In this document: one piece after another, positions 523 through 47,158 of the stretch | Numbering within the stretch: position 1 is the first letter of the stretch | Layout: each line of letters opens with the position of its first letter | Origin: Spirochaetota bacterium | GTDB lineage: Bacteria > Spirochaetota > UBA4802 > UBA5550 | Direction of reading: 5' to 3' | Length of the DNA: 64,000 bases | NCBI GenBank assembly: GCA_050298055.1 | Contig: JBNKTL010000001.1 | Location: 70,979 to 134,978 of the forward strand | Notes under the pieces: model-generated | The model's input: only the letters and a program-made list of their open reading frames with translations | Told to the model about the DNA's origin: nothing | Databases searched by the model: none | Translations under genes and position numbers: made by a program

Positions 523-595
523 AAACCTCTTCTCAGGCAGAGAGAATATCCACAGATACAAATTAACAACCAGCAATAATAAACAGGAGAACATC

Positions 596-3500
596 ATGAT
601 TAAACGTATTCTAGACTCAAAGCAACCGGTAATTATCTATAATCCCCCAAAAGTATTCAGCATGGATTACTTCAGGGAGTGCTACCGGTCCGGGGCCCTG
701 CCTGTATTCGATTCTGAATTCTTCAGCAACAGTGAGATTATCTCAATACTGGAAAAAGTATCAACTGAGGAGTTTCTCTTTGGTATCAGGCTGAAGGTTG
801 ATAACAGGGAGCTCGTAGATTATCTGAAAAATACGGATATTCTCAATCTCGATGTGGTGATTTTTCACTACAACAACTCCGAGGAGCTGAACACTTTTGA
901 GTTTGATAACCCCAATTATAAACTTGTCCTTGAAGTTATTGATATTGATATTAATGACACACTGGAGAAACTCCTTCCCCACGCCCTTATTCTCAAAGGA
1001 AATGAGGCCCCCGGAAAGGTCTCCAAGTTTACATCCATGATCCTTCTCCAGTACTACCGGGAAAAAACGGAATTTCCCGTTATTATTCACGGAGGCGTAG
1101 GATTCCATACCGCACCCGGAATTTTTGCCGCGGGAGCAAGCGGAATTGTACTTGATAACCAGCTCTACCTCACAGACGAAGCGCCCCTGTCGGACAACTT
1201 CAAAGAGGTCATATCCTCTCTCAAGGAGAGCGACACACAGTTAATAGGGGACTCACTCAATCAGAAGTACAGGTACAGATTTTTCGCGAAGCTTGGAACA
1301 AAGGTGGTGAAAGACCTCAAGGAGGAGGAGAGCCGCCTGAAGGGAAACAGTGCCCAGGCTGACAAGCTCTACACAAAAATATGCGATAAAATTGAATCCA
1401 TGGATAACAGCAGCGCCAATACCCTTCAGAGCCTTTTCTACCTTGGCCAGGATTCTGTCTTCTCAAAGCATTTTGTCAGGGAGACAAAAAAACTTCAGCT
1501 GGTAATAAGAAACCTCTTCCTCTCTATAGGAGAAGCCCTTGAAAGCATCGATGAGTATGATCCCCTTGTAGCCGATTCGGAAATGGCAAAAGAGCATAAC
1601 ACGAAATACCCCATCGTTCAGGGACCCATGGCTAACATCAATGATAATCCCGAGTTTGCCAAAAAGGTCTTTGAAGCCGGCGGACTTCCCTTCTTTGCCA
1701 TGGGGAACCTCCCCGAAGACCTTGCGGACAACATATTAAAAAATGGTTCGGAATTGTTCGGAAATTTCGGAGCAGGGCTTATCGGAACCCCCGATATAAA
1801 CAGGTCATTTGAGGGACACCTGAAAAGTGTAAAAAAATACGGGGTCAAATTTGCCCTTATAGCAGTGGGGATACCCTCGTATGTCAATAAGCTTGAATCC
1901 GAAGGCACAAAGACATATCTTCACACGCCCGCACTCCAGATGCTTGAAAACGCTATGAACAATAACTGTAACAGGTTTATTTTCGAGGGGAAAGAGGCCG
2001 GGGGGCATATCGGGACACTGACCAGTTTCGTTCTCTGGGAGATCGGTATTGAGAAGCTGATCAATGAGCCTGATGAAGTTTTATCCAATAAATCCGTCCT
2101 CTTTGCAGGTGGTATAGCCTCAAAAACCGGATCGCATTTTATATCCGGCATGTCTTCGCCCCTTGCAAAAAGGGGCGTAAAGGTAGGTATACAGGCCGGG
2201 ACCCCCTATCTTCTTACGGAAGAAATTCTTGAGACCGGCGCATTAAAGAAGCTGTACCAGGACCTGCTTATAGAGAGAAATATTACAACCGTTATTGGTA
2301 AAACCGTCGGTCTCTCAACACGGACGGTCGTATCGCCCTTTTCTGAGAAAATGCTTGAGAAAGAATACCAGATGATAATGGAGAAAGTCCCCCTGGGCGA
2401 AAGGAAAGAGTATTTTGAAGGAAGAAATGTGGGGTCACTTCTTATTGCCGCCAAGGCATATATTCCGGATTTTAAGAAGCTCAAAGAAGCGGGAAAACTG
2501 GAATATATTAACTATAATGATGAAGACCACTATGAAAAGGGCAACTTCCATACGGGCGAATCCATAGCCTTCTTCAACAGCCAGATCAAAATAGAGGACA
2601 TTCATAACGCGTACTTTGAGGAAAAGAAAAACCTCTCCTCCAACCTGAACATGCTTGAAATATACTCCGGCGAAAAGAACGAGATCGCCGACGAGATCGC
2701 GGTTGTGGGTATGGCATGTACCTTCCCCGACGCGGACTCCCCGGAGAAATTCTGGGAGAACATAGTCTCAAAGAAATATTCAATAAGGGAAGTCCCCGTG
2801 GAGAGGTTTGACAATTCACTCTACTACAGTGAGGACAGAAATGAAGAAGACAAGTCCTATTCAAAGATAGCGGGAGTTATTGACTATTTTGACTTCGACT
2901 ACAAGAAGTACGGATATAAGAAAACAGAAGCAAAACACCTCTCCCGGTCACAGCAGATGATCCTGGATACTGCCATGAAGGCAGTTGACAACGCGGGATA
3001 CCTTAAAGTGAAGAAACTGCCAAAGGATAAAACATCTGTCATTATCGGGACATGCCTGGGGAATGAGTTCGGCGACGACATGTACCTTCTCATCTACCAT
3101 CCGGAGATAAGGTACCATCTTGAGAAAAACGAAGAGTATAATAAACTCAGTAATAGTGATAAGGAACTCCTCCTTGAAGAACTCAAAAAGGGGATGGCAA
3201 AGGGGTTCAATCCCAAACTTCCCGACGGAGCGGCACTCAATGCCGAAGCATCAAGGATCGCGAAACACCTGGAAATTGAGGGAATCAACTATACCATAGA
3301 CGCGGCCTGCGCAACGTCACTGGCCGCACTTGACAATGCCAAGAGAGAACTCCTCTCAGGCGAATCGGATGCTGTCATCGTCGGCGGTATCCATACCAAC
3401 CTGGGGCCCGAAACATTTGTGGGCTTCGCGAAGATGGGGGCACTGTCAGGGAAGGGGTCCTTCCCTTTTGATGACAGGGCAGGCGGTTTTGTCATCGGTG

Positions 3501-6500
3501 AAGGGGCCGGTGTGCTGGTCCTCAAGAGGATGAAGGATGCCATCAGGGACGGTGATACTATCCACGCCGTTATTAAGGGGATAGGGTCCAGTTCAGACGG
3601 GAAAGGGAAAGCCATTGCGGCGCCGAAACCTGAAGGCCAGGGTTTCGCGGTAACCAGGGCCTTTGAGGACACAAAGTCCGGGATCACCACAGGTGATGTG
3701 GGATTTATTGAAGCCCACGGAACAGCAACTCTTATGGGTGACAGCACAGAGGTCAAGAACCTGATCAATACCTATAAAACCAATTCCCCTATCGGGATCA
3801 GCTCTATCAAATCACAGATAGGGCACCTCCTGGGAGGCGCCGGGGCAGCGGGAATGATAAAGGCCATCCTTGCGCTTAAGAACAAAACTCTTCCGCCAAA
3901 CGGCCAGTTTGAAACACCCTCCACGAAGTTCAACCTGGAGAACACCCCCTTCTTTGTTGTAACCGATGCCACGGAATGGAAGGTGGACGAGGGAAAAACC
4001 AGGATCGCGGGAGTCAGCTCTTTCGGTTTCGGGGGCATTAATTATCATGTCCTCATGGAGGAGTATACGGAAAACTACCGTCCCGTGAAAAGGGAGATAT
4101 TCAGAAATCCCGAATACGATTTCAATGACGACAGGATCGTTATCGCCGGTCTCGGTGTGGTGCTCCCGGGCGCCGATAACATCGATGATTTCTGGAAAAA
4201 TCTTGAAAGCGGAAAAAATGTCATCACAGAAATACCCGACTCGCGCTTTCACAATGAGTACTATGCCCGGGAGAAGGACCCCATTCTCCATATTCCCAAA
4301 ATCAAATCGGGTGTTGTCAATGACTACAAGTTCAACAACCTGAAATACAAGATACCTCCCTCAATCCAGAACTCAATAGACAGGGTCCAGTGCTTTGCCA
4401 TCGACTCAGCCACCCAGGCAATTGAGCAGGCGGGAATTAAAGATACATTTACAAACGGCAATAACACGGGAATTATTATCGGGACCTCAAGCGGAGAGAA
4501 ACATATTGAAAACATCTTCCGCACAAGAATTCCCTTTGTTAAAAAACTCATCAATTCACTGAAGGGTATAGATTCCGCTCAGCTCAAAAAAATATCAGAC
4601 GGCCTTGAAATATCCCTCAAGGAGAGATATGACAGAAATTCCGAAGACACTATTCCCGGTCTCCTCTCAAACATTGTGAGCGGCAGAATTGCCAATTTCT
4701 ACAACGCGAATGGCGCTAACTACACCATTGAGGCGGAATGCGCGTCCTCTGCAGTGGGAATACACCTGGCAATGAAGACCCTTCGTTCTAAAAAGGCCGA
4801 CTATATGATTGCAGGGGGCGCCGATACTAACCTCGCTCCCGCCAATCTCATGGCCTACCAGATGATCAAGGTGCTCTCCCCGGGAGAAAACAAGATCTTT
4901 GACAATACCTCATCAGGTGTCATCATGAGTGAGGGCGCAGCCGTAATGGTTCTCACCACCTATAAAAAAGCCAGGGAAGCAAATATGGATATAATCAGTG
5001 AGCTTTCAGACTTCAGCTGGAGGTCCTACGCCCATGAGAATTTCCTTGCGCCTACAACTGCCGGTTTCACAAAGACCCTTGACAGGTTTTATAAAAAAAG
5101 CCCTTTTTCAAGGAAACAGGTGGACTATATAGATGTTTTCGCATCATCCCATCCCGCGGTTGACGCATGGGAGAGAGACGCAATAGAGAAGTCATTCGTG
5201 AAGGATATCTATTTCGGCAATATTAAACCGGAAACAGGTTATTTCAGGTCAGCGAATCCCGCCGTGGTGTTGACGAAACTTGCCCTCATGGCAAAAAACA
5301 GGAAGATCCTCCCGAACTTCTCCTTCTCTGAAAAGAATACAATCATCCCAAAGGACTCAAAGATCAGGGCGGCTTCATTGTCCACGGACCTGAGCGGCAG
5401 GGACTCCATTAACCTGGCAGCAAACTTTTCCGGTCTCGGGGGAAATCATGCCCACACAATTATCCGGACCCTTCCCTCACGATTTATAAAATCCGCCGCA
5501 CGGACGCTCACTGCAGCGGCAAAGGCTGCTGCTCCGGAAGCACTCCCGGACAGCGCAGCGGCAGGAAAAGAGAAGGTCGCGGCTCTCCTCTCGGGACAGG
5601 GAGCACAGCATGCGGGAATGATGAAAGAGCTCTATGATAAATATCCGGTGATCCGTGAAATCATGGACAGGGGAGAGAAGATATTCAGAGAGGCAAGAGG
5701 ATATTCACTGCTGGAAATGATGTTCGGTGAGAATAAGGCCATAAACAGTACCGAGAACACACAACCCGCAATTTTTCTCTCTTCCGCCGCTCTTTACGAC
5801 TCTCTGAAAAAGAAGGGATTCCAGCCCGACTATATGATCGGCCACAGCGTGGGTGAGTTTACGGCCCTCTATTGCTCCGGCGTCCTCGGCTTTGAGGACG
5901 CCTTCCGGCTTATCCTCAAGCGAAGCGAGATGATGAAGGAGGCATCAGAGACGGTACCGGGCTCGATCATGGTTGCTTTCGCAAGTCCGGGAGATATTGA
6001 AAAACTGATTAAAAAATCGGGCCTGAATAATGTCTATCTTGCCAATAAGAACAGCGAGAACCAGACGGCCGTATCGGGGGGAGTTGAGGAGATCGATAAA
6101 TTCTGCTCATTCCTGAAAGGTGAAAAGGTCCAGTTCAGGAAACTGGACCTCTCCGGGGCATTTCATACCCCTCTCTTTCAGAAAGCCGCTGACGGGCTGA
6201 AGGACTATATCCGGGACCTCACATTTAACACCACGGACTATTCCCGGGTGATTTCCAATGTTACGGCAAAGAGCTATCCGGATGATCCCCGGGCAATAAA
6301 GGAACTCCTGGTGAAACAGCTTATTTCACCTGTGGAGTTTATCCAGTCTGTTGAGAACCTTTCAAAGCTGGGCGTAAAGCACTTTATGGAGATCGGACCC
6401 AACAGGATACTCACAAACCTCCTGAAAAACATCAGGATCAAGAACTACGGATCAATGCCCTCTGTAGACCCGAAAAAGGGACAGCTTGATTCTTTCGAGG

Positions 6501-9500
6501 CTTTCACCGGGTATCTTGAAGAAAATTCCCTCATCACTCCGGAGAAACCTCAAGTGGCGGAACCGGTCCCCGTGGCAGCCGTGCAGACCGGCGCCTTCAG
6601 GGGAGAAATGGCTCTTCCCGCCAGCGGAGATGCCGGTTTTGACAGCTTTCTCAGGGACAACAAAGACCATGTAAACAGCATCCTTTACAAGGAGTACCAG
6701 TATAACAGGGCCCTCCGGATGATGGAGTCACTGGACAGGTTTAACTTCTACACAGGGAGGATTGTGATATCCGGAGTCTCAATAGGGCTCCCCGGAAAAG
6801 GCCGCCACGTTTTCGAGGAGAACAACTTCGACAGGGTCCTCGCTGGAGAGAACTGCATAGACCCCATCTCCCAAAAAGATAAGGAGAACATGATCAAGAA
6901 GAATATTACCAGGATATTCAAGCAGCCTGACGGCAGCGCGCGGTTCCAGGACATCACGTCAACGGAAGATGTCATACACCTTGCGGGACAACTGGGATAC
7001 TTTGATTTAAAAGAGGACTATGGCATCGACTATGACTATGATATCACCTACGGGCTTGCCATAGCCGCGGGTATTGAAGCGCTCAAGGACGCGGGAATAC
7101 CCCTTGTGATGAACTACCAGAAGACCACAACCGGAAGCCTGATCAAAAAGGGGTATTCTCTCCCCAAAGAGATGCAGGAGGGAACAGGTGTTATCTTCTC
7201 TTCCGTTTTCTCCAGCTTCGAGACCCTCATCAACGAGATATACGGATACAATAAGGACCAGTTCTATAAGAACGTCTATAAGGACTTTGAAAGCCTTTAC
7301 TATTTCCTCATGGAGACGGTCCCCGATGCCAGGGTCAAGGAGAAAGTAACGGATTGGTTCTTCAACCTTAAGGAAGAGGTAAAGGGACATGAAGAGTATA
7401 AGTACGACAGAAACCTCCTCATGAACCTTATCCAGATGGGGGCCCCCTTCTTCGCCCAGTATATAAAGGCCAAGGGGCCGAACACGCAGCTCAATGCCGC
7501 GTGCGCCACCACAACACAGGCTGCAGGTGTCGCCGAGGACTGGATCAGGATGGGCAGGTGTGAAAGGGTCATCATCATAGGCGGTGAAGCTCCCACTACA
7601 GAAGTCCAGAACGAATGGATCACCGCCGGTTTCCTCGCGGTAGGCGCCGCGACCGTTAAAAAAACCGTAAAGGAAGCGGCAAAACCCTTTGACAAGAGCA
7701 GAAACGGAATGATCGTGGGAAGCGGCGCCGTAGCCATGATCGTGGAAAGGGAAGACAGCGTCAGGGAGAGGGGTTTTAACGGACAGGCCGAACTCCTGGG
7801 AACATATATTAAGAACAGCGCCTTTCATCCCACACGGCTGGATGTTGATCATATCACTCATGAGATGAAGTATTTCATGGAAAGCATGAAAAGGGCGCAC
7901 GGCCTCGAGGACAACTATGCCGACTCACTCCTCTTCATGTCCCATGAGACCTATACTCCCGCACGGGGAGGGTCCGCCGATGCGGAAATATCGGCCCTCC
8001 AGAACACATTTCCGGACAACTATAAAAATATTCTCATTACCAATACAAAGGGTTACACGGGACACCTTCTCGGCGTTGCCGTGGAAGATGCTATCCTTGT
8101 GAAGGCCCTTCAGAAGGGTATTGCGCCTCCCATAGCAAACCTTACGGATATTCCCGACAATTTCAAGGGACTGAAATTCAGCAGGGGAGAAAAGAACAGT
8201 TACCGGTACGGGGTCCACTTTTCGGCCGGGTTCGGATCACAGTTTGCCCTGATGTTTATCAGGAGAATCGAAGAAAAGAACAAAGAGAACAATCCCGTCT
8301 ACACCGCATGGCTGCAGAGAATTACCGGGATGACAAATCCCCAGCTGAAGATAATAAACAGGACCCTCTGCATAGACAGCGATCCCGCGGCTCCGGCAGT
8401 TAAACCCCGGGAGATACCCGCGACTGCTGTCAAAGAAACAGCTGCTCCCGGTCCTTCCGCTCCTCCTGCGGCAGGTATTGATTCGGCTGCAATTCTCAAG
8501 AAGGTGCAGGATATTATCGCCTCACAGACAGGGTACACCATGGACATGCTGGAAGAGGGGCTGGACCTGGAAGCGGACCTGGGAATCGACACCGTTAAAC
8601 AGGTGGAGATATTCGGCCTCATCTCATCGGAATACGACCTGGAGGTACCCGAGGACCTGAAGCTCTCGGAGCTCAACACAATCAGCAAGATCGTGGGATA
8701 TGTGGGAGGAAAAGTTACCCTTGCCGCTCCCGCCGCTCAAACGGCTGCAGGCGCAGATACTTCCGGAATACTCAACAAGGTGCAGGATATTATCGCCTCA
8801 CAGACAGGATACACCGTGGATATGCTGGAGGAGGGACTTGACCTGGAAGCGGACCTGGGAATCGACACCGTCAAGCAGGTGGAGATATTCGGCCTCATCT
8901 CATCGGAATACGACCTGGAGGTACCGGAAGACCTGAAGCTCTCGGAGCTCAACACAATCACTAAAATCGTTGGATATATTGGCAGGAAGGTTACCGTTGC
9001 CGCTCCTGCTGCTTCAACCGGGAAACCGGGGTCAGAGCAAACCGTTTCCCCGGCTGCCGGACAACAATCCGGTCCGGGAACTATAAGCAGGTTTGCCGTG
9101 GAGGCCGTAAAAACGAAGATGATCAGTGAAGAGAAAAATATCTTCGAGAACAAAACAATACTCGTCTCTCCCGATAAGCAGGGATTTTCCAAAAAGCTTA
9201 TTGCTGAAATTGAGAAGAGAAAGGGAAAGGCAGTTACCATTGGAAAGGGAAAGGACCATGAGATAAAATGTGACTTCAGCAAACTTGATGATGTTGAAAA
9301 CGCCGTGAGAACGGTCATTGAAAAACATCCTGAGATCAGCGGCTTCATACACCTTCTTCCCCTGGACAACTATTTCGGAAAGAGGGCCCTTAATGAGAAT
9401 GAAATAAATACCTCGGTAAAATCCCTCTTCATTATGGTAAAGGGACTCGCGGAGAAACTTAACGGACCCGGTTCAATTATTTCATCCCTCTCCTTTGACT

Positions 9501-11584
9501 CGGTAGTCTTTCCTTATACAGGAATGGATGCGGATATCCATCCCCTCTTTGCCGGAATAGGCGGTATGATGAAGACCATTAACAAGGAGTTTAAGGATAC
9601 GTTTGTGAAAATGGTGGATTTCTCATACAACGATCCGAAGAAAAACTCAGGAAAGATCATCGACCTCTATATGAGAGAACTCCTCTCGGGGGATACACGG
9701 GTAGAGACCGGCTTCCATAAAAAAGAGAAGTATGTAATTTCACTGAAAAAGAAGTCCCCTGAGAAGGGAGAGAGCCTGGTCAGGACCGGGGACACGCTCC
9801 TTGTTACTGGGGGCGCCAGGGGAATTACCTTTGAAATTCTGAAGGAGGTTGTGAAGAAGAACGAAAATCTCAGCCTCATTCTCCTTGGCCGAAGTGATAT
9901 CGAGGCCATTGACAGCGAATACCTGGCCGAAAGCGCCGACGAACAGTTTATCTTTAAATCACTCAAGGAGAAGATGAAGGGGTCAAAACCCCTTGAGATC
10001 AGGAAGGCCACGGAAAAAGCCCTTAATATTAAACAGACCCGGGCGAACCTGGAATTTCTGAGATCCCGGGGCGTAGAGACAATCTACCATTCCGTTGATG
10101 TCTCAAACCGGAAGGCCCTTGCGGATGTTCTCAAGGGACATGAGAAAATCGACGGTATCATTCACGCGGCAGGTGTGGAGATATCCAACTTCATCCCCAA
10201 CAAGGAACTCAGGACCTTCAACCTGGTCTTCGACACAAAGATCACCGGGATGATGAACCTTCTTGAAGTCCTTAAAGAGAGGGACTACAGGTTCCTCATC
10301 GGCTTTTCTTCGGTTGCCGCCAAGTTCGGAAATGAAGGGCAGATAGACTATTCCGGCGGAAATGACATGCTCTGCAAGATGATCATCAGGGAGAGCATCA
10401 GCAACGGCAAGAATGTCAAGATCTTCGACTGGACAGCGTGGAAAGATATCGGAATGGCCACAAACGAGACGGTTAAGAAGGTCCTCATTGAGAACGGGGT
10501 GGAACTCCTTCCCGTGGATGCCGGAGTCAATTTCTTCATGGAAGAACTTAACGACAGCAGCGCCCGGGAGGTGCTTGTTGCCAACACAATGCATGAATTT
10601 GATCCCGACGGGATCTTCCCCGGGGGCAGCGAAAAGGGGGAGAGCTCAAAATTCCCCTTCCTGGGAGAGAAGCTCGAGGAGAGAGACAATTCCGTTGTTT
10701 ACAGCAGAGTGCTTGATATTAAAAACGACAGGTTCCTTCTTCACCATGTCATAGACGAGGTGCCTCTCTTCCTGGGGTCCACGGGAGTTGAAACCATGGC
10801 GGAAGCCGCTGCAACTCTTGCAGGAGAGAGCCGGAAGGTCTTTGAAGTTACGGAATTTGAAATTCCCTACGGAATAAAGATACTGAAGGGAAGACCCAGG
10901 GAGATCCTGGTTGAGGCTGAAAAGGCCCCCGGTGATAAGGAGATGTTCAGGTGTACGATAACCTCTCAGTTCAGGAACACAAAGGGAGAAGTGATGGGCG
11001 ATCCCACATTTCACTACAGGGGGACCTACCGGTTCACGGAAAAGGAAAATGAGGAGATAAAAATTGAGATCCCGAAACTCCCCTCACTGGAATACCAGGG
11101 GGAAGCGGATGATATCATGTACCATCCCCAAAGGCTCTTCATGGATGACCTCTTCAAGACCATCGATGACATGGTTGCCTTTGACGGGAAGACACTTCTC
11201 ACAAAGTTCCATAACAGAAGCAGCAACAAGTACTTTAATCATATCAGTGACCCGGAGCTCCAGACAGATGCCATCCTGGTTGACGGGATGTTCCAGACCG
11301 GGGGACTCCTTGAATTTCTCTCAACAGACGAGGTGGTGCTTCCCTACAGGATCGGAAGCCTGAAGTTCCACAGGGACGTCAATACAAATGATGAATATCT
11401 CTGTATTACGGAAAAATCCTCAAGTGATGAGAAGACCAACAGGTACCAGCTGAAGCTTATAGACAGCCAGGGGAACCTCTTTATCTCCGTTGAAGATTTC
11501 GAGATGATACGTGTGGGGAAACTTCCCGGAGAGTTCCAGATCAGGGACAGGATCAGGATACTGGAAGACGCAAAAGTTAACTGA
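596..11584 (+). CDS. Giant type I PKS / PUFA-synthase-like megasynthase: FabK/nitronate-monooxygenase-like ER x2 - KS - KS(His-less) - AT - KS - ACP - ACP - KR - DH
   Basis: ATG 596 with RBS CAGGAGA. Motifs: PIVQGPM/EAGGH (FabK-like); DAACATS/HGTAT/KSQIGH (KS1); EAECASS (KS2); GQGAQ/GHSVG/GAFH (AT); NAACATT/HETYT/KGYTGH (KS3); LEADLGIDTVK x2 (ACP); GGARGIT/YSGGN (KR); HVIDEVP/DGMFQ (DH). Confidence 0.95.
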   Translation: MIKRILDSKQPVIIYNPPKVFSMDYFRECYRSGALPVFDSEFFSNSEIISILEKVSTEEFLFGIRLKVDNRELVDYLKNTDILNLDVVIFHYNNSEELNTFEFDNPNYKLVLEVIDIDINDTLEKLLPHALILKGNEAPGKVSKFTSMILLQYYREKTEFPVIIHGGVGFHTAPGIFAAGASGIVLDNQLYLTDEAPLSDNFKEVISSLKESDTQLIGDSLNQKYRYRFFAKLGTKVVKDLKEEESRLKGNSAQADKLYTKICDKIESMDNSSANTLQSLFYLGQDSVFSKHFVRETKKLQLVIRNLFLSIGEALESIDEYDPLVADSEMAKEHNTKYPIVQGPMANINDNPEFAKKVFEAGGLPFFAMGNLPEDLADNILKNGSELFGNFGAGLIGTPDINRSFEGHLKSVKKYGVKFALIAVGIPSYVNKLESEGTKTYLHTPALQMLENAMNNNCNRFIFEGKEAGGHIGTLTSFVLWEIGIEKLINEPDEVLSNKSVLFAGGIASKTGSHFISGMSSPLAKRGVKVGIQAGTPYLLTEEILETGALKKLYQDLLIERNITTVIGKTVGLSTRTVVSPFSEKMLEKEYQMIMEKVPLGERKEYFEGRNVGSLLIAAKAYIPDFKKLKEAGKLEYINYNDEDHYEKGNFHTGESIAFFNSQIKIEDIHNAYFEEKKNLSSNLNMLEIYSGEKNEIADEIAVVGMACTFPDADSPEKFWENIVSKKYSIREVPVERFDNSLYYSEDRNEEDKSYSKIAGVIDYFDFDYKKYGYKKTEAKHLSRSQQMILDTAMKAVDNAGYLKVKKLPKDKTSVIIGTCLGNEFGDDMYLLIYHPEIRYHLEKNEEYNKLSNSDKELLLEELKKGMAKGFNPKLPDGAALNAEASRIAKHLEIEGINYTIDAACATSLAALDNAKRELLSGESDAVIVGGIHTNLGPETFVGFAKMGALSGKGSFPFDDRAGGFVIGEGAGVLVLKRMKDAIRDGDTIHAVIKGIGSSSDGKGKAIAAPKPEGQGFAVTRAFEDTKSGITTGDVGFIEAHGTATLMGDSTEVKNLINTYKTNSPIGISSIKSQIGHLLGGAGAAGMIKAILALKNKTLPPNGQFETPSTKFNLENTPFFVVTDATEWKVDEGKTRIAGVSSFGFGGINYHVLMEEYTENYRPVKREIFRNPEYDFNDDRIVIAGLGVVLPGADNIDDFWKNLESGKNVITEIPDSRFHNEYYAREKDPILHIPKIKSGVVNDYKFNNLKYKIPPSIQNSIDRVQCFAIDSATQAIEQAGIKDTFTNGNNTGIIIGTSSGEKHIENIFRTRIPFVKKLINSLKGIDSAQLKKISDGLEISLKERYDRNSEDTIPGLLSNIVSGRIANFYNANGANYTIEAECASSAVGIHLAMKTLRSKKADYMIAGGADTNLAPANLMAYQMIKVLSPGENKIFDNTSSGVIMSEGAAVMVLTTYKKAREANMDIISELSDFSWRSYAHENFLAPTTAGFTKTLDRFYKKSPFSRKQVDYIDVFASSHPAVDAWERDAIEKSFVKDIYFGNIKPETGYFRSANPAVVLTKLALMAKNRKILPNFSFSEKNTIIPKDSKIRAASLSTDLSGRDSINLAANFSGLGGNHAHTIIRTLPSRFIKSAARTLTAAAKAAAPEALPDSAAAGKEKVAALLSGQGAQHAGMMKELYDKYPVIREIMDRGEKIFREARGYSLLEMMFGENKAINSTENTQPAIFLSSAALYDSLKKKGFQPDYMIGHSVGEFTALYCSGVLGFEDAFRLILKRSEMMKEASETVPGSIMVAFASPGDIEKLIKKSGLNNVYLANKNSENQTAVSGGVEEIDKFCSFLKGEKVQFRKLDLSGAFHTPLFQKAADGLKDYIRDLTFNTTDYSRVISNVTAKSYPDDPRAIKELLVKQLISPVEFIQSVENLSKLGVKHFMEIGPNRILTNLLKNIRIKNYGSMPSVDPKKGQLDSFEAFTGYLEENSLITPEKPQVAEPVPVAAVQTGAFRGEMALPASGDAGFDSFLRDNKDHVNSILYKEYQYNRALRMMESLDRFNFYTGRIVISGVSIGLPGKGRHVFEENNFDRVLAGENCIDPISQKDKENMIKKNITRIFKQPDGSARFQDITSTEDVIHLAGQLGYFDLKEDYGIDYDYDITYGLAIAAGIEALKDAGIPLVMNYQKTTTGSLIKKGYSLPKEMQEGTGVIFSSVFSSFETLINEIYGYNKDQFYKNVYKDFESLYYFLMETVPDARVKEKVTDWFFNLKEEVKGHEEYKYDRNLLMNLIQMGAPFFAQYIKAKGPNTQLNAACATTTQAAGVAEDWIRMGRCERVIIIGGEAPTTEVQNEWITAGFLAVGAATVKKTVKEAAKPFDKSRNGMIVGSGAVAMIVEREDSVRERGFNGQAELLGTYIKNSAFHPTRLDVDHITHEMKYFMESMKRAHGLEDNYADSLLFMSHETYTPARGGSADAEISALQNTFPDNYKNILITNTKGYTGHLLGVAVEDAILVKALQKGIAPPIANLTDIPDNFKGLKFSRGEKNSYRYGVHFSAGFGSQFALMFIRRIEEKNKENNPVYTAWLQRITGMTNPQLKIINRTLCIDSDPAAPAVKPREIPATAVKETAAPGPSAPPAAGIDSAAILKKVQDIIASQTGYTMDMLEEGLDLEADLGIDTVKQVEIFGLISSEYDLEVPEDLKLSELNTISKIVGYVGGKVTLAAPAAQTAAGADTSGILNKVQDIIASQTGYTVDMLEEGLDLEADLGIDTVKQVEIFGLISSEYDLEVPEDLKLSELNTITKIVGYIGRKVTVAAPAASTGKPGSEQTVSPAAGQQSGPGTISRFAVEAVKTKMISEEKNIFENKTILVSPDKQGFSKKLIAEIEKRKGKAVTIGKGKDHEIKCDFSKLDDVENAVRTVIEKHPEISGFIHLLPLDNYFGKRALNENEINTSVKSLFIMVKGLAEKLNGPGSIISSLSFDSVVFPYTGMDADIHPLFAGIGGMMKTINKEFKDTFVKMVDFSYNDPKKNSGKIIDLYMRELLSGDTRVETGFHKKEKYVISLKKKSPEKGESLVRTGDTLLVTGGARGITFEILKEVVKKNENLSLILLGRSDIEAIDSEYLAESADEQFIFKSLKEKMKGSKPLEIRKATEKALNIKQTRANLEFLRSRGVETIYHSVDVSNRKALADVLKGHEKIDGIIHAAGVEISNFIPNKELRTFNLVFDTKITGMMNLLEVLKERDYRFLIGFSSVAAKFGNEGQIDYSGGNDMLCKMIIRESISNGKNVKIFDWTAWKDIGMATNETVKKVLIENGVELLPVDAGVNFFMEELNDSSAREVLVANTMHEFDPDGIFPGGSEKGESSKFPFLGEKLEERDNSVVYSRVLDIKNDRFLLHHVIDEVPLFLGSTGVETMAEAAATLAGESRKVFEVTEFEIPYGIKILKGRPREILVEAEKAPGDKEMFRCTITSQFRNTKGEVMGDPTFHYRGTYRFTEKENEEIKIEIPKLPSLEYQGEADDIMYHPQRLFMDDLFKTIDDMVAFDGKTLLTKFHNRSSNKYFNHISDPELQTDAILVDGMFQTGGLLEFLSTDEVVLPYRIGSLKFHRDVNTNDEYLCITEKSSSDEKTNRYQLKLIDSQGNLFISVEDFEMIRVGKLPGEFQIRDRIRILEDAKVN
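8501..8980 (+). repeat. Tandem near-identical ACP-coding repeat, period 276 bp
   Basis: AAGGTGCAGGATATTATCGCCTCACAGACAGG starts at 8501 and again at 8777; differences are mostly synonymous. Confidence 0.95.
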
Positions 11585-38063: not shown

Positions 38064-39407
38064 ATGATAGATAAGAGCTTAATCTGGGGCAAAGTTCTGG
38101 ATTCCATGCAGACCAATATCAATAAGCAGTCTTTTGATATGTGGTTAAAGGATACAAAGCCGCTGGAGTTCAGCGGTGACACAATGAAAGTTCGGGTTGC
38201 AGACGATGTAGCAAAACGTCATATTTCTGATCAGTATTCAAATCAGATAGAGAACATCCTTGAATCAGTGGCCGGTAAAAGAATGTCGTGTGAATTCGTC
38301 ATCAATAATGGATTCTCCACTGAAGCAGATGAAAATCCCTCGATAAAAATAAAAGAACGATTTTTCACCGGTGAAAATCAGAGATCTGTACACCTTAATC
38401 CAAAATATACCTTTGAGAACTTTATTATCGGTCCCAATAACCAGTTGGCCCATGCAGCTGCCAGTGCCGTAGCCCATGCCCCTGCAACACAGTTTAATCC
38501 GCTCTTTATCTATGGTGCCACAGGACTGGGTAAAACCCACCTCATGCATGCCGTAGGGCATCACATTATCTCTGAGAAGCCCTTTCTCAAGGTCCTTTAT
38601 GTCCCCACCGAACAGTTTATAAATGAATTTATCAATTCCATTATGTCTAACACCCAATCCAGTTTCAAGATTAAGTACAGGGACGTTGATATCCTGTTGA
38701 TAGATGATATCCAGTTTATCGAGAAAAAAGAGGAGACCCAGAATGAATTTTTTCATACCTTCAACAACCTCTATGAAAATAAGAAGCAGATTGTCATAAC
38801 CAGTGACAGACCTCCCAAGCAGCTTTCAACACTGACTGACAGGTTGAGATCGAGATTTGAATGGGGAATGATAACCGATATTCAATCACCTAATCTTGAA
38901 ACACGGGAAGCAATACTGAGGCACAATGCCGAAAGGGAGAACCTCAATATATCCGATGAAGCAATCAACTATATTGCCAGAAGAATAAAATCCACCATCA
39001 GGGCCCTGGAAGCGGCTATCAGCAGGCTCAAACTGGTTTCTTCACATTTTGAAGAACAGATCAATCCCAACCATGCCAAACTTCACCTGAAGGATCTCTT
39101 TGATGACAGTTCAAACAAAAAAGTCACCGTAACGGATATAATGATTAAAATTTCAGAGATTGACGGCATATCAGTCGAAGAGCTTAAATCCAAGAGCCGT
39201 CACAGCAGACTTATCCAGCCCCGGTTTAAAGCAATGTATCTTGTCAGAAAGCTCACGGACATGACCCAGTCAGATATCGGCAAGGAATTCGGAGACAGGG
39301 ACCATTCAACGGTTGTCAATGCAATAAATAAGATTGAAGATGATATGAGGACAAGCTCTGAATTTAAGGAACACATTGAAGATCTCATCGTGGAATTGAG
39401 GAGTTAA
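38064..39407 (+). CDS. dnaA: Chromosomal replication initiator
   Basis: LNPKYTFENF, GATGLGKTHL, LLIDDIQF, RLRSRF, RDHSTV. Confidence 0.99.
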   Translation: MIDKSLIWGKVLDSMQTNINKQSFDMWLKDTKPLEFSGDTMKVRVADDVAKRHISDQYSNQIENILESVAGKRMSCEFVINNGFSTEADENPSIKIKERFFTGENQRSVHLNPKYTFENFIIGPNNQLAHAAASAVAHAPATQFNPLFIYGATGLGKTHLMHAVGHHIISEKPFLKVLYVPTEQFINEFINSIMSNTQSSFKIKYRDVDILLIDDIQFIEKKEETQNEFFHTFNNLYENKKQIVITSDRPPKQLSTLTDRLRSRFEWGMITDIQSPNLETREAILRHNAERENLNISDEAINYIARRIKSTIRALEAAISRLKLVSSHFEEQINPNHAKLHLKDLFDDSSNKKVTVTDIMIKISEIDGISVEELKSKSRHSRLIQPRFKAMYLVRKLTDMTQSDIGKEFGDRDHSTVVNAINKIEDDMRTSSEFKEHIEDLIVELRS

Positions 39408-39650
39408 TTATCTGTTGATAAGTCATTTATTTGATGTTAATTATTCTCATATTTTATGAATAACTTTTTTATTTGACAATTAACTCAAATTAGGATTATG
39501 TCATATTTAATTTATAACAGATTATCCACTTCAATGTTATCCCGTAAATCCTGAACTGTTCAGCGTTTAGTGACTTTATTAACATATCAGGATAGACTAC
39601 TACAATTACTATTAATTAATAATTAATTAATAATATTAATAGCAGGAAAG
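39408..39650. promoter_or_regulatory. oriC part 2 with DnaA boxes, DnaA-trio-like run and AT-rich unwinding element
   Basis: TGTTGATAA 39413, TTATCCACT 39522, CTACTACAATTACTATTA 39597-39614, then an almost pure A/T tract to ~39641. Confidence 0.8.
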
Positions 39651-39655
39651 GCAAT

Positions 39656-40774
39656 ATGAGGATTATAACAGCAAAGGAAATACTTTTAAAAGCAATAAAC
39701 ATTGCAGAATCAATTATTTCATCCAAGAGTATTAATACTATACTTTCAAATTGCCTTTTGAATGTGAGAAAGGAATATACGGACGTTATTTCAACAGATA
39801 ATGAAGTGGCAACCGTAAGCAGGATCAAAGCCTCTTCAGATTCGGAAGCATCCTTTACAGTGAACGGTAAAAAACTTTCTAATTTGTTAAAGGAACTTCC
39901 CGATGATGATGTTTTTATTGACGTTAATGAATCACTGGGCATTGATATAAAATCGGCTTCAAAGGATGTAAAAGGCCACTATACCCTTATCGGCGGTTCA
40001 GCAGAGGAGTATCCTGAAGTTAACCGGATAAATAAGGATGAGTCAATCGAGATAGAACAATCTGTTCTCAAAAGTATGATTAAAAAGGTATCATATGCAG
40101 CATCCAATGATACAATTAAACCTGTTTTTAACGGGATATACATGATATCGGAACCTGTGGGGTCCCTGACAGCTGTGGCTACTGATTCACGGCGTCTCTC
40201 ACTTGTTACCCGGGAGATAGACAATGATATAGATATAAGTGAGGGGATCATTGTCCCTCTGAAAACAATTAACGAGGTCCAGAGGCTGCTTGAGTCTTCC
40301 GGCAGATGTCTCTTTTCATACAGCGATAAGAAGTGTTTCTTCAAAATAGGGGAAACAGAGGTTATCTCCCGAATCGTTGACGGTCAGTTTCCAAACTATA
40401 AACAGGTTATCCCCAAAGAACAGAGTATGCAGGCAGTTATAAATACCCGGAAACTGAGTGAATCGGTTAAAAGAGCAATGGTATTTACCCGGGAACCGGC
40501 AAATAAAATTATTCTCACTTTTGGAAAAAAGAAACTTCAGATAGACGCAAGTACACCTGAACTTGGAGAAGCAAACGAGGAGCTGCAGATTGAGTGTAAT
40601 GTAAAAGAAGAGATGTCAATTGGTATTAATGCAATGTTTCTCCTTGATACCCTGAAGGAGATAGATGATGAATTTGTTGTCTGCGGAATAACAGGACAGA
40701 TGAGCCCGGTAACAATTACCTCCGAAAAAGACAAAAATCATGTGTCCGTAATAATGCCCATACAGTTGAAATAA
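39656..40774 (+). CDS. dnaN: DNA polymerase III beta clamp
   Basis: ATDSRRL, SRIVDGQFPNYKQVIP, C-terminal VIMPI; follows dnaA. Confidence 0.97.
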   Translation: MRIITAKEILLKAINIAESIISSKSINTILSNCLLNVRKEYTDVISTDNEVATVSRIKASSDSEASFTVNGKKLSNLLKELPDDDVFIDVNESLGIDIKSASKDVKGHYTLIGGSAEEYPEVNRINKDESIEIEQSVLKSMIKKVSYAASNDTIKPVFNGIYMISEPVGSLTAVATDSRRLSLVTREIDNDIDISEGIIVPLKTINEVQRLLESSGRCLFSYSDKKCFFKIGETEVISRIVDGQFPNYKQVIPKEQSMQAVINTRKLSESVKRAMVFTREPANKIILTFGKKKLQIDASTPELGEANEELQIECNVKEEMSIGINAMFLLDTLKEIDDEFVVCGITGQMSPVTITSEKDKNHVSVIMPIQLK

Positions 40775-40820
40775 TAGTTTTCTTGATAGGCCCTTCTTTT
40801 TATTACCGGTATATCCCTCT

Positions 40821-41927
40821 ATGTATATCAAAAATTTAAGTGTTAAAAACTTCAGAAATTACAGGGAACTTGACCTGGAGTTTTCACCGGAAGTAAACTT
40901 TATTACCGGGGATAACGGAATCGGAAAAACAAATATCCTTGAAGCAATTACCATAACATCAAATATTAAATCGTTCAGAAATACACCTGACAGTGAGATT
41001 ATTCTCTGGGGTGAAGAATCCTACTACTGTTCATCTGTCATTGAAAAGAACGATTACAGAAAATTTGAAGTTGGCTGTACCCACATCTCGGACAGGACCA
41101 AAAAGAAAATAAAAATTGAAAGCAGAGAAATAATGAGGGGAACGGATTATTTTGGAAAATGCCTCTCTGTTATTTTTACACCAATGGATATTAACCTGAT
41201 CAACGGGTCTCCCGAGGTCAGGAGAAAGTTCTTCGATTCTGTTCTCTCCAAAATAGATAATGAATATATGGTTAACTTAAGCGAGATGAAAAAAATACTC
41301 CGTTCGAGGAACAGGATTCTCAAGATGATAAGAGAGAAAAGAACGAGCGGAACAGGACAGCTGGATGTCTGGGACAAAATGTTTTCTGAAAAGGTATCGT
41401 TCATTGTAAAGAAGAGAAGAGAATTTATCAAACAATTTGCCGGTCTTTTTTCCGATTCTTACAAAAGTATTGCAGGTGATGATCCCGGCACGGGTATTGA
41501 GTATATATCCTCTACAGCTTCAGATGAGAAAGGGGAAATAATGCAGGAGCTGGGAATAAACAGGAACAGGGATATTGCAATGGGAACAACCGGAACGGGG
41601 CCCCAGAGGGACGACTACATTCTGGTCAGGGACGGCAGGATCTTTACCCATTACGCGTCACAGGGACAGAGGAGAACAGCGGCAATATCCCTTAAGATGT
41701 CCGAGTGTGAGATCATCGAAGAAAAATCGGGAAAGAAATCGATTATCCTGGTAGATGATATTTTTTCAGAACTTGACGGCAGAAGACGGGAAAGAATGGT
41801 GGAAATACTCAACAGGGGAAACCAGGTTATCTTTACCATGGTCGATCCCGGTTCCATTCCGGAAAGAATATATAACGAGAGCATGAAGTACAGGGTGAAA
41901 CCCGGGGGACGAGTGGAAAAATACTAG
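40821..41927 (+). CDS. recF: DNA replication/repair protein RecF
   Basis: NFRNY, GDNGIGKTNILEA, GPQRDD, SQGQRR, DDIFSELD. Confidence 0.97.
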   Translation: MYIKNLSVKNFRNYRELDLEFSPEVNFITGDNGIGKTNILEAITITSNIKSFRNTPDSEIILWGEESYYCSSVIEKNDYRKFEVGCTHISDRTKKKIKIESREIMRGTDYFGKCLSVIFTPMDINLINGSPEVRRKFFDSVLSKIDNEYMVNLSEMKKILRSRNRILKMIREKRTSGTGQLDVWDKMFSEKVSFIVKKRREFIKQFAGLFSDSYKSIAGDDPGTGIEYISSTASDEKGEIMQELGINRNRDIAMGTTGTGPQRDDYILVRDGRIFTHYASQGQRRTAAISLKMSECEIIEEKSGKKSIILVDDIFSELDGRRRERMVEILNRGNQVIFTMVDPGSIPERIYNESMKYRVKPGGRVEKY

Positions 41928-42163
41928 TGCTGAGCAGCAGTTAAAAGCAGTCGAAATACTGAAGTTTCACAACACGATTTTATATTTTTCAGATATACAA
42001 TTTCTTGACTAAAAGAGGCTCAATATTATCATGGATATAAATTTCCGGTGATAAATTCAGCGAACTATGCTTTCCCTTTACCGGGTAAGGAGTAAAAATA
42101 ATTTTTAATCGTAATAACCGGAAACGTTTTGATCCTGTAATTACCAGATAGTCTATTCATAAA

Positions 42164-42508
42164 ATGAAATTCAGGTTTAGGAACTTCAGGTCAGGTAAAA
42201 CAGTGGAATTCCATGAAGTCCTGCCTGATATTATTAAGGAGCTGGATGTTGATGATTCGTTTGTAATTATTCAGCTAAAGCAGAACTGGGAAAAAATAGC
42301 CGGTAATATTATATCTGCCCACAGCACTCCTGAGAAAATTTACGGAAAAAAACTCTTTGTATCAGTGGATCATCCGGTTTATGCCAATGAAATATCGCTG
42401 ATGAAGAACAGCCTGTTGGACAAGATTAACAGGGTCCTCTCATCCGAGATGGTTAATGATATTAAAGCCGATGTAAAAAAATCCAGGTGGAGAAAGAAGG
42501 AACAGTAA
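42164..42508 (+). CDS. dciA: DUF721/DciA family protein
   Basis: WEKIAG..I.AHS.P...LFVSVDHPVYANE pattern; syntenic position after recF. Confidence 0.8.
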   Translation: MKFRFRNFRSGKTVEFHEVLPDIIKELDVDDSFVIIQLKQNWEKIAGNIISAHSTPEKIYGKKLFVSVDHPVYANEISLMKNSLLDKINRVLSSEMVNDIKADVKKSRWRKKEQ

Positions 42509-42511
42509 ACG

Positions 42512-44649
<2,138 letters not shown>

Positions 44650-44713
44650 GGACTGGATTGAATTGTAAAATCAGAAAATACAAGAATAGAGAGCAGGAAG
44701 CAGGGATAGAAAG

Positions 44714-47158
44714 GTGCCAACGAAAAAGAATACATCAACGGATAAAATAGTCAATGTTGAAATTGAAGACCAGATGATGAACTCGTACCTCGATTACGCC
44801 ATGAGTGTAATCGTGGGCCGGGCTCTTCCTGATGTCAGGGACGGGTTGAAGCCCGTTCATAGAAGGATTCTCCATGCCATGAACGAGAGGGCCTGGAGAA
44901 GCGACAGGGCTTATGTGAAGTCAGCAAAGATTGTGGGTGAAGTTATCGGTAACTATCATCCCCATGGCGATTCTGCTGTCTATGACACCATGGTGAGGAT
45001 GGCCCAGGACTTTTCCCTGAGAAATCCCATCATTGACGGACAGGGCAACTTCGGTTCCGTGGACGGGGACCCCCCTGCTGCTTACAGGTATACTGAGGCC
45101 AGGCTGAACAAGCTGGCCGAGGAGATGCTCAGGGATATCGACAAGGAGACTGTTGATTTTAACCCGAACTTTGATGAAACACGACAGGAGCCCCGTGTAC
45201 TTCCCGCGGCGTTTCCCAACCTTCTGGTTAACGGTTCCGAGGGAATTGCCGTGGGTATGGCCACAAAGATCCCTCCCCACAACCTGGTGGAGGTCATTGA
45301 AGGTACCATTGCGCTCATAGATAACCCTGCTCTTACCGTCAGGCAGTTAATGAAATATATCAAAGGACCTGATTTTCCCACTGCGGCGTCAATTGTCGGG
45401 TCGGAAGGGATCGTAAAGGCATATACAACCGGAAGGGGCAGCATCACCATCAGGGGCAAGTATGAAGTTGAGTCCGGCAAGAAGGGACGGGACAGCATCA
45501 TCATAAGCGAGATCCCCTACCAGGTCAACAAGGCTTCGCTTATTGCGCGGATTGCCGACCTGGTGAACAACAAGACCATTGAGGGAGTCTCCGCCCTGAG
45601 AGATGAGTCGGACAGAAGAGGCATGCGGATTGTCATAGAACTCAAGAAGGATGCCAACACAAATGTCATTATAAACCAGATATTTAAACACACACAGTTC
45701 CAGAATTCTTTCGGTATTATCTTTCTCGCGCTTGTTGACAATGTGCCCAAGGTCCTGGACCTCAAGGGCCTTCTGAGCAACTACATCCAGCACAGGAAGA
45801 TCGTCATAACCAGGCGTACCCGGTATGAGCTCCGGAAAGCCGAGGAGAGGGCCCACATTCTTGAAGGACTGAAGATAGCCCTTGATAATATCGACGAGGT
45901 TATCAGCATTATCCGCTCATCCAAGACCCCTGATGAAGCGGGAACCCGGCTTATAAAAAAATTCAGGCTTTCAGAAATCCAGGCAAAAGCCATCCTTGAC
46001 ATGAGGCTTCAGAGACTGACATCCCTTGAAGTGAAAAAAATCGAAGATGAACTGAAGGAACTCAAGAAACTTATTAAGGAGCTCAAGGAGATCCTCAAGA
46101 GCGAAACGAAGATCCTGAATATTGTAAAAAATGAACTCAACATCATTAAGGATAAATACGGAGACAAAAGGCGGACAGAGATTGTCATGGGTGAGGCCAC
46201 TACCGATTTTAACGTGGAAGACCTCATCGCCGAAGAGGACATGGTCATATCCATCTCCAATGACGGCTTTATCAGGAGGATCCCCATCGATACCTTTAAG
46301 AAACAGAGACGGGGAGGTAAAGGCGTTATCGGCATGTCTTCCAAGCGTGAAGACTTTATTGCCATGATGACAATTGCCACCACGCATGATATTGTCATGT
46401 TTTTCTCGAACAAAGGGAAAATCTTTGCCATGAAGGCCTACGAGATCCCTCTTGCAGGAAAAAGCAGCAGGGGGAGAAATATCAAGGGGATACTCAACCT
46501 CTCATCCGGTGAAGGCATCACCGCTGTCTGTGCCGTGGGTGATTTTGAAGGGGATGACTATCTCTGTATGGTTACAAGGGAGGGTATCCTGAAAAAGTCC
46601 GATATCGGTAACTTCATAAATGCCAAAAAGGGAGGGATCATTGCCATCAACCTCAAAAAGAATGATGAACTGGTTGATGTAAAAGTCGTGGAGAAGGGAG
46701 ATGATATCGTCATTGCCACAAAAAGCGGAAACCTTTTAAGAACAAACCTCCTGAAGATGAGGGCAATGGGAAGGACAGCGGCAGGAATTATCGGTATGAG
46801 GCTTACAAAAGACGATATGATCATAGGACTGGATGTTGTTAAACAGAACTCCTCTCTCTTTGTCATAAGCCAGAAGGGTTTTGGAAAAAGGATCAACTAC
46901 CAGAACTTTACCGCAAAAGGGAGAGGCGGCAAGGGGATGACATATCTCAAGGTTTCTGATAAAAACGGTCCTTCCATCGGAATCAGGTCTGTTTATATGG
47001 AAGATGAAATTATTATTATCTCCAAGAATGGAATGACAATAAGACTGCAGGCAAAGGACGTGTCCACACAGGGAAGGGCAACGGTGGGAGTCAAGCTTCT
47101 TGATGTGGGAAACGATGATATGGTTTCAGATTTTGCCGTCATATCAGAAGAGAAATAG
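44714..47158 (+). CDS. gyrA: DNA gyrase subunit A
   Basis: RALPDVRDGLKPV, YHPHGD, YRYTEA, GyrA-box QRRGGKG. Confidence 0.99.
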   Translation: MPTKKNTSTDKIVNVEIEDQMMNSYLDYAMSVIVGRALPDVRDGLKPVHRRILHAMNERAWRSDRAYVKSAKIVGEVIGNYHPHGDSAVYDTMVRMAQDFSLRNPIIDGQGNFGSVDGDPPAAYRYTEARLNKLAEEMLRDIDKETVDFNPNFDETRQEPRVLPAAFPNLLVNGSEGIAVGMATKIPPHNLVEVIEGTIALIDNPALTVRQLMKYIKGPDFPTAASIVGSEGIVKAYTTGRGSITIRGKYEVESGKKGRDSIIISEIPYQVNKASLIARIADLVNNKTIEGVSALRDESDRRGMRIVIELKKDANTNVIINQIFKHTQFQNSFGIIFLALVDNVPKVLDLKGLLSNYIQHRKIVITRRTRYELRKAEERAHILEGLKIALDNIDEVISIIRSSKTPDEAGTRLIKKFRLSEIQAKAILDMRLQRLTSLEVKKIEDELKELKKLIKELKEILKSETKILNIVKNELNIIKDKYGDKRRTEIVMGEATTDFNVEDLIAEEDMVISISNDGFIRRIPIDTFKKQRRGGKGVIGMSSKREDFIAMMTIATTHDIVMFFSNKGKIFAMKAYEIPLAGKSSRGRNIKGILNLSSGEGITAVCAVGDFEGDDYLCMVTREGILKKSDIGNFINAKKGGIIAINLKKNDELVDVKVVEKGDDIVIATKSGNLLRTNLLKMRAMGRTAAGIIGMRLTKDDMIIGLDVVKQNSSLFVISQKGFGKRINYQNFTAKGRGGKGMTYLKVSDKNGPSIGIRSVYMEDEIIIISKNGMTIRLQAKDVSTQGRATVGVKLLDVGNDDMVSDFAVISEEK

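Follow-up and report, generated by a model that had tools for sequence, protein, structure and literature searches.

The window analysed here is a stretch of 64,000 nucleotides from a Spirochaetota bacterium (contig JBNKTL010000001.1, positions 70,979 to 134,978). On its forward strand, at 596 to 11584, lies a single gene for a megasynthase of 3,662 amino acids (aa) as assembled and probably longer, the array of acyl carrier protein (ACP) domains having collapsed. The gene is a new member of Type S, a catalogued but uncharacterised family, and does not encode a synthase of polyunsaturated fatty acids (PUFA). Every domain needed for elongation is present in one chain, and the catalytic residues are intact. 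It is probable that this protein is the main fatty-acid synthase (FAS) of its host, in place of the missing FabF, FabD and FabZ pathway, and that its carriers hold phosphopantetheine on threonine. The chances are about even for the wider proposal that Type S is a third, independently assembled type I FAS, made of FabK-, FabD- and FabF-like parts on a PfaA chassis, which has taken over the elongation steps of type II fatty-acid synthesis (FAS II) both in a lineage of spirochaetes and in the sulfate reducers that dominate marine settings, and which works on phosphopantetheinyl-threonine carriers loaded by phosphopantetheinyl transferases (PPTases) of its own.

A preliminary description of the window had called the protein a self-contained, iterative lipid synthase related to the Pfa systems, uncharacterised, and from a probable spirochaete, all of which stands. 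A scan of species genomes with the second ketosynthase domain gave at least 460 matches, of which 80 were kept as named loci; the top two are from metagenome-assembled genomes of Spirochaetia/Spirochaetes and nearly all of the others are from Desulfobacterales. The same description took the architecture to be new and the product to be an unknown long-chain lipid. The family was in fact catalogued in 2011 from one genome and now has hundreds of relatives, mainly in Desulfobacterales, and an unusual lipid is a less likely product than ordinary membrane fatty acids.

Domain content and catalytic residues

Pfam matches and alignments bear out the order first described, ER-ER-KS-KS-AT-KS-ACPn-KR-DH, with three ketosynthases (KS) in one frame (ER, enoyl reductase; AT, acyltransferase; KR, ketoreductase; DH, dehydratase); the first ER lacks its catalytic histidine and the second KS is non-condensing. 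By Pfam there are two NMO/FabK-like domains, three KS, one AT, two PP-binding domains, a KR and a DH of the polyketide synthase (PKS) type. As previously stated, there is no thioesterase domain by Pfam in the 3,662 aa protein. The FabA-like dehydratase/isomerase family (PF07977) has no match in the synthase or in the whole host genome (G000, 98.3 % complete). A whole-length search gave 800 matches among 2,313 candidates scored, and the best 120 of these, mostly 47–52 % identical, are the homologues to which the residue counts refer. The domain order is identical in 119; the remaining one is shorter, ending after KS3.

At the N-terminus, ER1 (596 to 1570) is a FabK-like barrel and the predicted structural partner of ER2 (1571 to 2665), a FabK-like FMN enoyl reductase in which His471 of the EAGGH motif is present in 120 of 120. 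The predicted structure of the pair is a confident single unit (predicted template-modelling score, pTM, 0.93). Searched against known structures, it retrieved those of FabK first (E 1e-19 to 1e-14), with PfaD at rank 30 and yeast FAS as a weak fold match; going by this model, the two barrels may pack like a FabK dimer. KS1 (2678 to 4075) is a PfaA-type ketosynthase with C905, H1041 and H1077 in all 120 homologues. KS2 (4127 to 5485) is its partner, resembling a chain-length factor (CLF), with both His lost and the Cys kept in 115 of 120. Here Cys1382 is present and both His are absent, while in two spirochaete relatives (G010 and G026) the Cys is lost as well, as may happen in a structural CLF. 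The predicted model of KS1 with KS2 (pTM 0.95) has a full-length match to the KS-CLF of PfaC (6RIW, template-modelling score 0.80).

The AT (5567 to 6520) is a FabD-like malonyl transacylase with GHSxG, Arg and AFH in 120 of 120, and its best model is FabD (239.7 bits versus 151.6 for PfaA). KS3 (6743 to 8275) is FabF-like and matches type II models only, with FabF at the top. It bears the motif HET(Y)TPARGGS, common to Type R synthases, and its triad C2303/H2450/H2490 is intact (Cys kept in 120 homologues, the two His in 120 and 117). Look-alikes of KS3 (window 6743-8275) in a protein atlas form one archaeal cluster and two diatom-rich clusters, which is a lead only. Two tandem ACPs on a 276 bp repeat follow (8483 to 8995), with the motif DLGID-T-VKQV placing Thr2666 at 8591 to 8593 and Thr2758 at 8867 to 8869. 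The PfaA-like KR (9143 to 10600) has TGGARG, K3215, S3239, Y3252 and N3256, and the PKS-type DH (10643 to 11560) has H3384, D3563 and Q3567, in 119 of 119.

In model scoring KS1 and the KR are best matched by PfaA and both ERs by FabK, and on such scores the chain is a mosaic of PfaA-, FabD-, FabF- and FabK-like parts. The protein is not PfaA, PfaC and PfaD reshuffled into one chain, as the ER is FabK-like, the AT is closest to FabD, KS3 resembles FabF and a DH of the FabA type is lacking.

In the cycle proposed for a core FAS, a cognate PPTase would load the threonine ACPs and the AT would load malonyl. KS3 and the KS1/KS2 pair would then condense, probably splitting the work by chain length or between priming and elongation, with KS2 setting chain length as a CLF. 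The KR, DH and ER2 would finish each round, ER1 replacing the second subunit of a FabK dimer. The expected products are even-chain C14–C18 saturated, and probably also monounsaturated, acyl chains. Because there is no thioesterase domain and no PlsX, these would pass directly or via CoA to acyltransferases of the PlsB, PlsC or YihG type.

Threonine carriers and fatty-acid gene content

In both ACPs, a threonine aligns with the serine of the DS motif in AcpP and PigH. Threonine occupies the phosphopantetheine site in 380 of 382 ACP motifs of the 120 homologues, and in 201 of 201 motifs of the 80 named loci, which overlap that set. All four codons are used in the 80 loci (ACG 119, ACC 48, ACA 24, ACT 10), and since serine is one base change from any threonine codon, the threonine appears to be selected. 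The ACP copies of Type R synthases likewise have threonine (4/4, 3/3 and 5/5). Judged from these sequences, the likeliest arrangement is that a cognate PPTase modifies the threonine; a generic PPTase may fail to load these ACPs because of this residue. A literature search found no paper on phosphopantetheine at threonine, which is weak evidence, and the main text of Shulse & Allen (PMC3098273) mentions neither threonine nor serine. Phosphopantetheine on threonine, if true, widens a serine-only textbook rule, and threonine ACPs could not then be safely scored as dead.

It is highly improbable that these ACPs are inert, the protein being a relic or using a free ACP in trans. In favour of this, the Ser36Thr mutant of E. 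coli ACP is reportedly unmodified. Serine is the accepted attachment residue (PMC7949117), HRM2 genes of this kind have been called possibly 'remnant' in a review (PMC4882568), the protein is nearly absent from a proteome considered below, and the synthase copy of relative G019 (L034:11805-19997) has a single in-frame TAG near the end of KS2, reflecting either a split gene or an assembly error. However, no catalytic residue varies although overall identity is about 50 %, threonine is kept in nearly every motif through four codons with serine one base away, the ACPs are repeated up to eight times (one to eight copies per homologue by BLAST count), PPTases lie beside the gene in relatives, and no free AcpP was found in the host outside a cluster for a nonribosomal peptide synthetase (NRPS) and PKS.

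The host genome is consistent with a need for such a synthase. KS and AT queries matched there only in multidomain synthases, and no stand-alone FabD is present. Family searches for FAS II genes, positive in 8–11 of 14 control genomes, found no stand-alone FabF or FabA/Z, no FabH over cut-off and no PlsX in the host, FabG and FabI not being searched; the weak FabH match is a thiolase-like frame. The genes rpmF and rnc are 230 bp apart, and no fab gene separates them. The absence of PlsX and AccA from the host says little, because each was found in none of 131 Desulfobacteria searched, with or without FAS II. The host has ten PF01553 acyltransferases, including a YihG homologue and an 854 aa frame that would be PlsB-sized, and no acyl-ACP thioesterase was found in it with a Desulfoluna limicola query. 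At C29:46750-57541, motifs indicate what is presumably an operon for a Na+-pumping decarboxylase with a carboxyltransferase, beside methylmalonyl-CoA mutase and succinyl-CoA synthetase; this carboxyltransferase, of the Na+-pumping methylmalonyl-CoA decarboxylase type, is a candidate source of malonyl-CoA.

The observation that no PPTase lies beside the gene is correct for the host, but the genome has a single PPTase on contig C53, and in relatives a PPTase gene is adjacent to the synthase or close by. The host PPTase stands next to a second synthase, which is Type R-like, is divided between the ends of two contigs (C38:45899-49196 and C53:27796-32633) and has at least five threonine ACPs; the order after this synthase is the PPTase, then an acyl-CoA-dehydrogenase-like frame. 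Elsewhere in the host (C37:1-8399), an NRPS/PKS cluster contains an AsnB-like gene and a free ACP of the serine type.

For distribution, 131 genomes of the class Desulfobacteria were scored for FabF and FabZ at curated cut-offs; two of the genomes (G086 and G102) gave near or sub-cut-off matches. The synthase is carried by 42, KS2 (E below 1e-80) and KS3 marking the same 42. Both FabF and FabZ are missing from 32 of these carriers and present in ten, and among the 89 non-carriers 66 have both, 13 FabZ only, two FabF only and eight neither. FabH is kept in 41 of the 42 carriers, therefore the gap is not one of general incompleteness. A Fisher test of the co-occurrence (P 1e-14) was set aside, as kin are not independent. 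A quick tree with 67 rows places 26 of the 32 losses in one clade and 28 in a slightly larger clade of 37 rows that holds no FAS II keeper, all ten carriers with FAS II being outside; the remaining losses are two more groups and Desulfoluna. The six spirochaete synthases form a clade of their own (support 98, with long-branch warnings). Such a pattern of loss would be expected from gain of the synthase followed by loss of FAS II elongation.

In the host's order, FabF and FabZ are over cut-off in two of 41 genomes and Type S is present in six. In one carrier on a single contig (G010), the synthase is the sole KS/AT match and acpP stands directly before rnc with no fabF. No KS or AT match at all was found in 20 of the 41, with at most eight candidates scored in each; one of the 20 (G011) is a single contig, 97 % complete. 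These are probable fatty-acid auxotrophs among apparently free-living spirochaetes. Within this order the synthase would make prototrophs of scavengers again, and its co-occurrence with missing FAS II genes there proves nothing.

Lipid profiles are available for cultured Desulfoluna, among which D. butyratoxydans carries the synthase. Three strains grown on lactate had only C12–C18 saturated and monounsaturated acids with 3-OH-C12/C14 (PMC7031245, Table S2). The main acids listed are 14:0, 16:0, 16:1w7c, 18:1w9, 18:1w7 and 3-OH-14:0, with no PUFA (PMC7031245). FAS II content was checked in a fourth strain, D. limicola (complete genome), where FabD is present and neither a FabF over cut-off nor a second Pfa-like synthase was found. 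The sole stand-alone KS of D. limicola and a weak FabA/Z match lie inside a bioF-bioB cluster. This cluster (L117:9794-15749) reads bioF-KS-ACP-reductase-dehydratase-bioB and probably provides a cell that lacks FabF with its own pimeloyl-ACP route to biotin. Locus tags of strain DBB run rpmF-fabG-acpP-rpiB-glyA, with no fabF.

Several observations weigh against Type S as the core FAS, in addition to the serine rule, the Ser36Thr mutant and the interrupted G019 copy given above. In the proteome of D. spongiiphila DBB the synthase, taken to be DBB_24570 (4,175 aa) from its length and neighbours, has only two peptides, and FabH has 480 peptide-spectrum matches, with ACP, FabG and FabD well detected; LpxA and LpxD are expressed too. 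A 448 kDa protein may have been lost, because the samples were excised just after entry into a 12 % gel. Ten of the 42 carriers keep FabF and FabZ, and losses are also seen without the synthase, in the eight non-carriers with neither gene and in 13 more without FabF. As a single clade accounts for 26 of the 32 losses, there are only about three to four independent loss events. The 20 genomes of the host's order without KS or AT suggest that cells can live by scavenging, and the host itself has at least five strong FadD-like ligases. Its Type R-like synthase is a possible other source of acyl chains, as are second Pfa-like systems with a FabA-type DH in four Desulfobacterales (G041, G043, G044 and G045). 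Finally, no biotin carboxylase was found in the host or in relative G002.

Part of this evidence suits a different product. The synthase could make a specialised lipid (a long-chain alkyl, hydroxy-alkyl or ether lipid, or a hydrocarbon precursor) under its own regulator, with membranes built from scavenged acids or by an unrecognised route, FabH-centred or by reversed beta-oxidation. This is unlikely, although the scant detection of the DBB synthase beside abundant FabH, the dedicated regulation (a sigma-54 activator at 60 of 80 loci, with motif enrichment as detailed below), the ten carriers with FAS II and the patchy presence in the host's order all fit it. Characterised Pfa-like types also make the chains of PUFAs, heterocyst glycolipids or phenolic lipids (PMC3098273). 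Against it, there are no recurring tailoring genes, and what does recur is carboxylase, BirA, PPTase and phospholipid acyltransferase. The Desulfoluna profile (PMC7031245) has no unusual fatty acid, although acid hydrolysis and gas chromatography could miss ether lipids and hydrocarbons, and lactate-grown cells require a de novo route from which FabF and FabZ are specifically missing.

A partial role is still less probable. Here, the synthase would extend primers that are scavenged or made by FabH, or would give one class of chains alone, saturated or else unsaturated, a second synthase or FabH, FabG and AcpP supplying the rest. Retention of FabH in 41 of 42 carriers, expression in DBB of FabH, FabG, AcpP, FabD, LpxA and LpxD, second synthases in the host, in G009 and in the four Desulfobacterales, and the lack of a FabA-type DH support this, as does cross-feeding between Pfa and FAS II in Photobacterium (PMC8174602). 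However, FabH and a second synthase are both absent from G010, and no second Pfa-like synthase was found in D. limicola, whose congeners make both saturated and monounsaturated acids.

If Type S is instead the core FAS, this explains the membranes of Desulfobacter, Desulfobacula, Desulfoluna and their kin without FabF and FabZ, matters for the use of lipid biomarkers in marine sediments and for metabolic models in which the gap stands unfilled, and adds a bacterial single-chain FAS of separate origin that is usable as a one-gene module.

Assembly, gene neighbourhood and regulation

The synthase gene starts at the ATG at 596, with a ribosome-binding site (AGGAG, 585 to 589, forward strand) 6 nt ahead of it and the same start Met in the aligned homologues. 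Both rule out the alternative TTG start at 464. No terminator-like site was found downstream. The G+C content of third codon positions is 0.59 (73rd percentile), which gives no sign of recent transfer. Sequence motifs place dnaA-dnaN-recF-gyrB-gyrA at 38064-47158 of the window, the synthase thus being about 27 kb from a probable replication origin.

A chimeric assembly, raised as a concern in the preliminary description, is ruled out by the domain order shared with 119 of the 120 homologues and by the contigs flanking the ACP array, which have equal depths of 11.5 and 11.7 (run X1) and so argue against a join of unrelated sequences. Two ACPs had been counted, and this is correct for the assembled frame. 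However, depth over the array is about two to three times that of the flanks (two runs, one study), no listed contig bridges it in the same two runs, and an orphan contig (C146, 606 bp) encodes two further ACP repeats, nearly identical and joined by the same linker. The array has therefore probably collapsed, so that two ACPs and 3,662 aa are under-counts, and the true gene probably has at least four ACPs.

Directly upstream, as first reported, is a TetR-family regulator, the 3′ part of which occupies 1 to 522 on the forward strand. It is about 340 aa long, starts before the window and ends 73 bp before the synthase, with which it is likely to be co-transcribed. The same regulator stands directly upstream in three of the five related spirochaete loci (G009, G019 and G026). 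These proteins are best matched by the models of Bacillus FadR and mycobacterial FasR, below cut-off, and are extended at the N-terminus by a conserved stretch of about 130 aa without a Pfam match (L034:10739-11740, L033:534-1634 and L035:9655-10704). In mycobacteria, fas is controlled by the TetR protein FasR. A palindrome, GAC(T/G)GAC-NN-GTCAGTC, is a putative operator and is found upstream of all six spirochaete loci, including two without the TetR gene; in the host it lies just before the TetR gene, outside the window. The host genome has one perfect site and two with two mismatches, and three shuffled versions gave 11–16 with two mismatches and none better. Three more matches are inside genes of a single G010 stretch.

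A single-chain carboxylase of 1,770–1,940 aa, with biotin carboxylase, biotin carboxyl carrier protein and carboxyltransferase domains in that order, follows the synthase in three of the five related loci (G009, G010 and G026); the G019 contig ends inside the synthase gene. Eukaryotic acetyl-CoA carboxylase has the same domain order. These carboxylases (L029:10009-15831, L032:3281-8581 and L036:2613-8276) have a long unannotated middle and 155 relatives, the named ones mostly from spirochaetes. In G010, BirA, the 1,941 aa carboxylase and BioY lie downstream and a PPTase about 11 kb upstream, and a PPTase is beside or near the synthase in two of the five loci (adjacent in G002). The single-chain carboxylase is absent from the host, and a search of the 131 Desulfobacteria at E 1e-150, with three candidates scored per genome and no positive control, did not find it either.

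Counted over all 80 named loci, whose genomes are close kin, a sigma-54 activator is a neighbour in 60 and a PPTase in 13, while 43 have an acyltransferase that scores over cut-off as YihG family. A sigma-54 motif lies upstream in 13 of 69 loci, where 0.29 would be expected. In D. limicola an operon with Na+-pump, carboxyltransferase and OadA-like genes lies downstream, and after it a thioesterase-like frame.

Comparison with known synthases

A characterised synthase of the same architecture was sought. The architecture itself is on record, but no product or functional study of Type S was found in the literature. Shulse & Allen (2011) listed YP_002604438 of HRM2 as Type S, ER-KS-CLF-AT-KS-ACP3-KR with a PPTase, product unknown; they noted HRM2 to be without fabA and fabZ and suggested Type S as a possible core fatty-acid synthase (PMC3098273). 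The text of that description, which was drawn from one genome, has no mention of a tandem ER, a terminal DH, an active FabF-like KS3 or threonine ACPs (PMC3098273). Named members now include Desulforapulum autotrophicum HRM2, Desulfobacula toluolica, Desulfospira joergensenii and Desulfoluna butyratoxydans. The HRM2 protein (P0087) and that of the window are 48 % identical in their best-matching segment, the nine domain queries all find their counterparts in the same order, and both hosts lack fabA and fabZ. The PPTase, YP_002604439, is next door in the HRM2 listing, whereas none is beside the gene in the present host; such adjacency is variable within Type S (adjacent in G002, a PPTase in 13 of the 80 loci). 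The present gene belongs to a spirochaete clade and has a TetR gene and putative operator in place of a sigma-54 activator.

Type R (KS-MAT-'CLF'-ACPn-KR), found in Acidobacteria, Chloroflexi and Elusimicrobia, is 39–41 % identical to the window protein in KS1 and 44–45 % in KS3. The back half and the DLGIDT ACPs are common to both types, but Type R is without the ER pair and KS2, and its 'CLF' bears the HETYT motif of KS3. Nothing on Type T synthases was found in PMC5223564.

Likeness to PfaA-E (Types A and B) is in the PfaA-type KS1, the KR, the tandem ACPs and, in the predicted model, the KS-CLF pseudo-dimer. Hosts of Types A and B retain full FAS II (PMC3098273). Two active KS domains are a further common feature; in PUFA synthases each serves a different range of chain lengths (PMC11962503). 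Defects in FAS II can be covered by Pfa domains (PMC8174602). Type S differs in being a single chain without a FabA-type DH or a PfaB-type second AT, and with an ER that is FabK-like rather than PfaD-like. Against the PfaA model (TIGR02813) it scores 919.4 bits, below the cut-off of 1010.1.

The type I FAS of fungi and Corynebacteriales is a large chain with an FMN barrel ER, no thioesterase and a dedicated PPTase. These synthases differ in ancestry and in the order of their domains, each chain has a single KS and a single ACP, and the arm is serine-linked. Like them, Type S has a complete elongation cycle in one chain.

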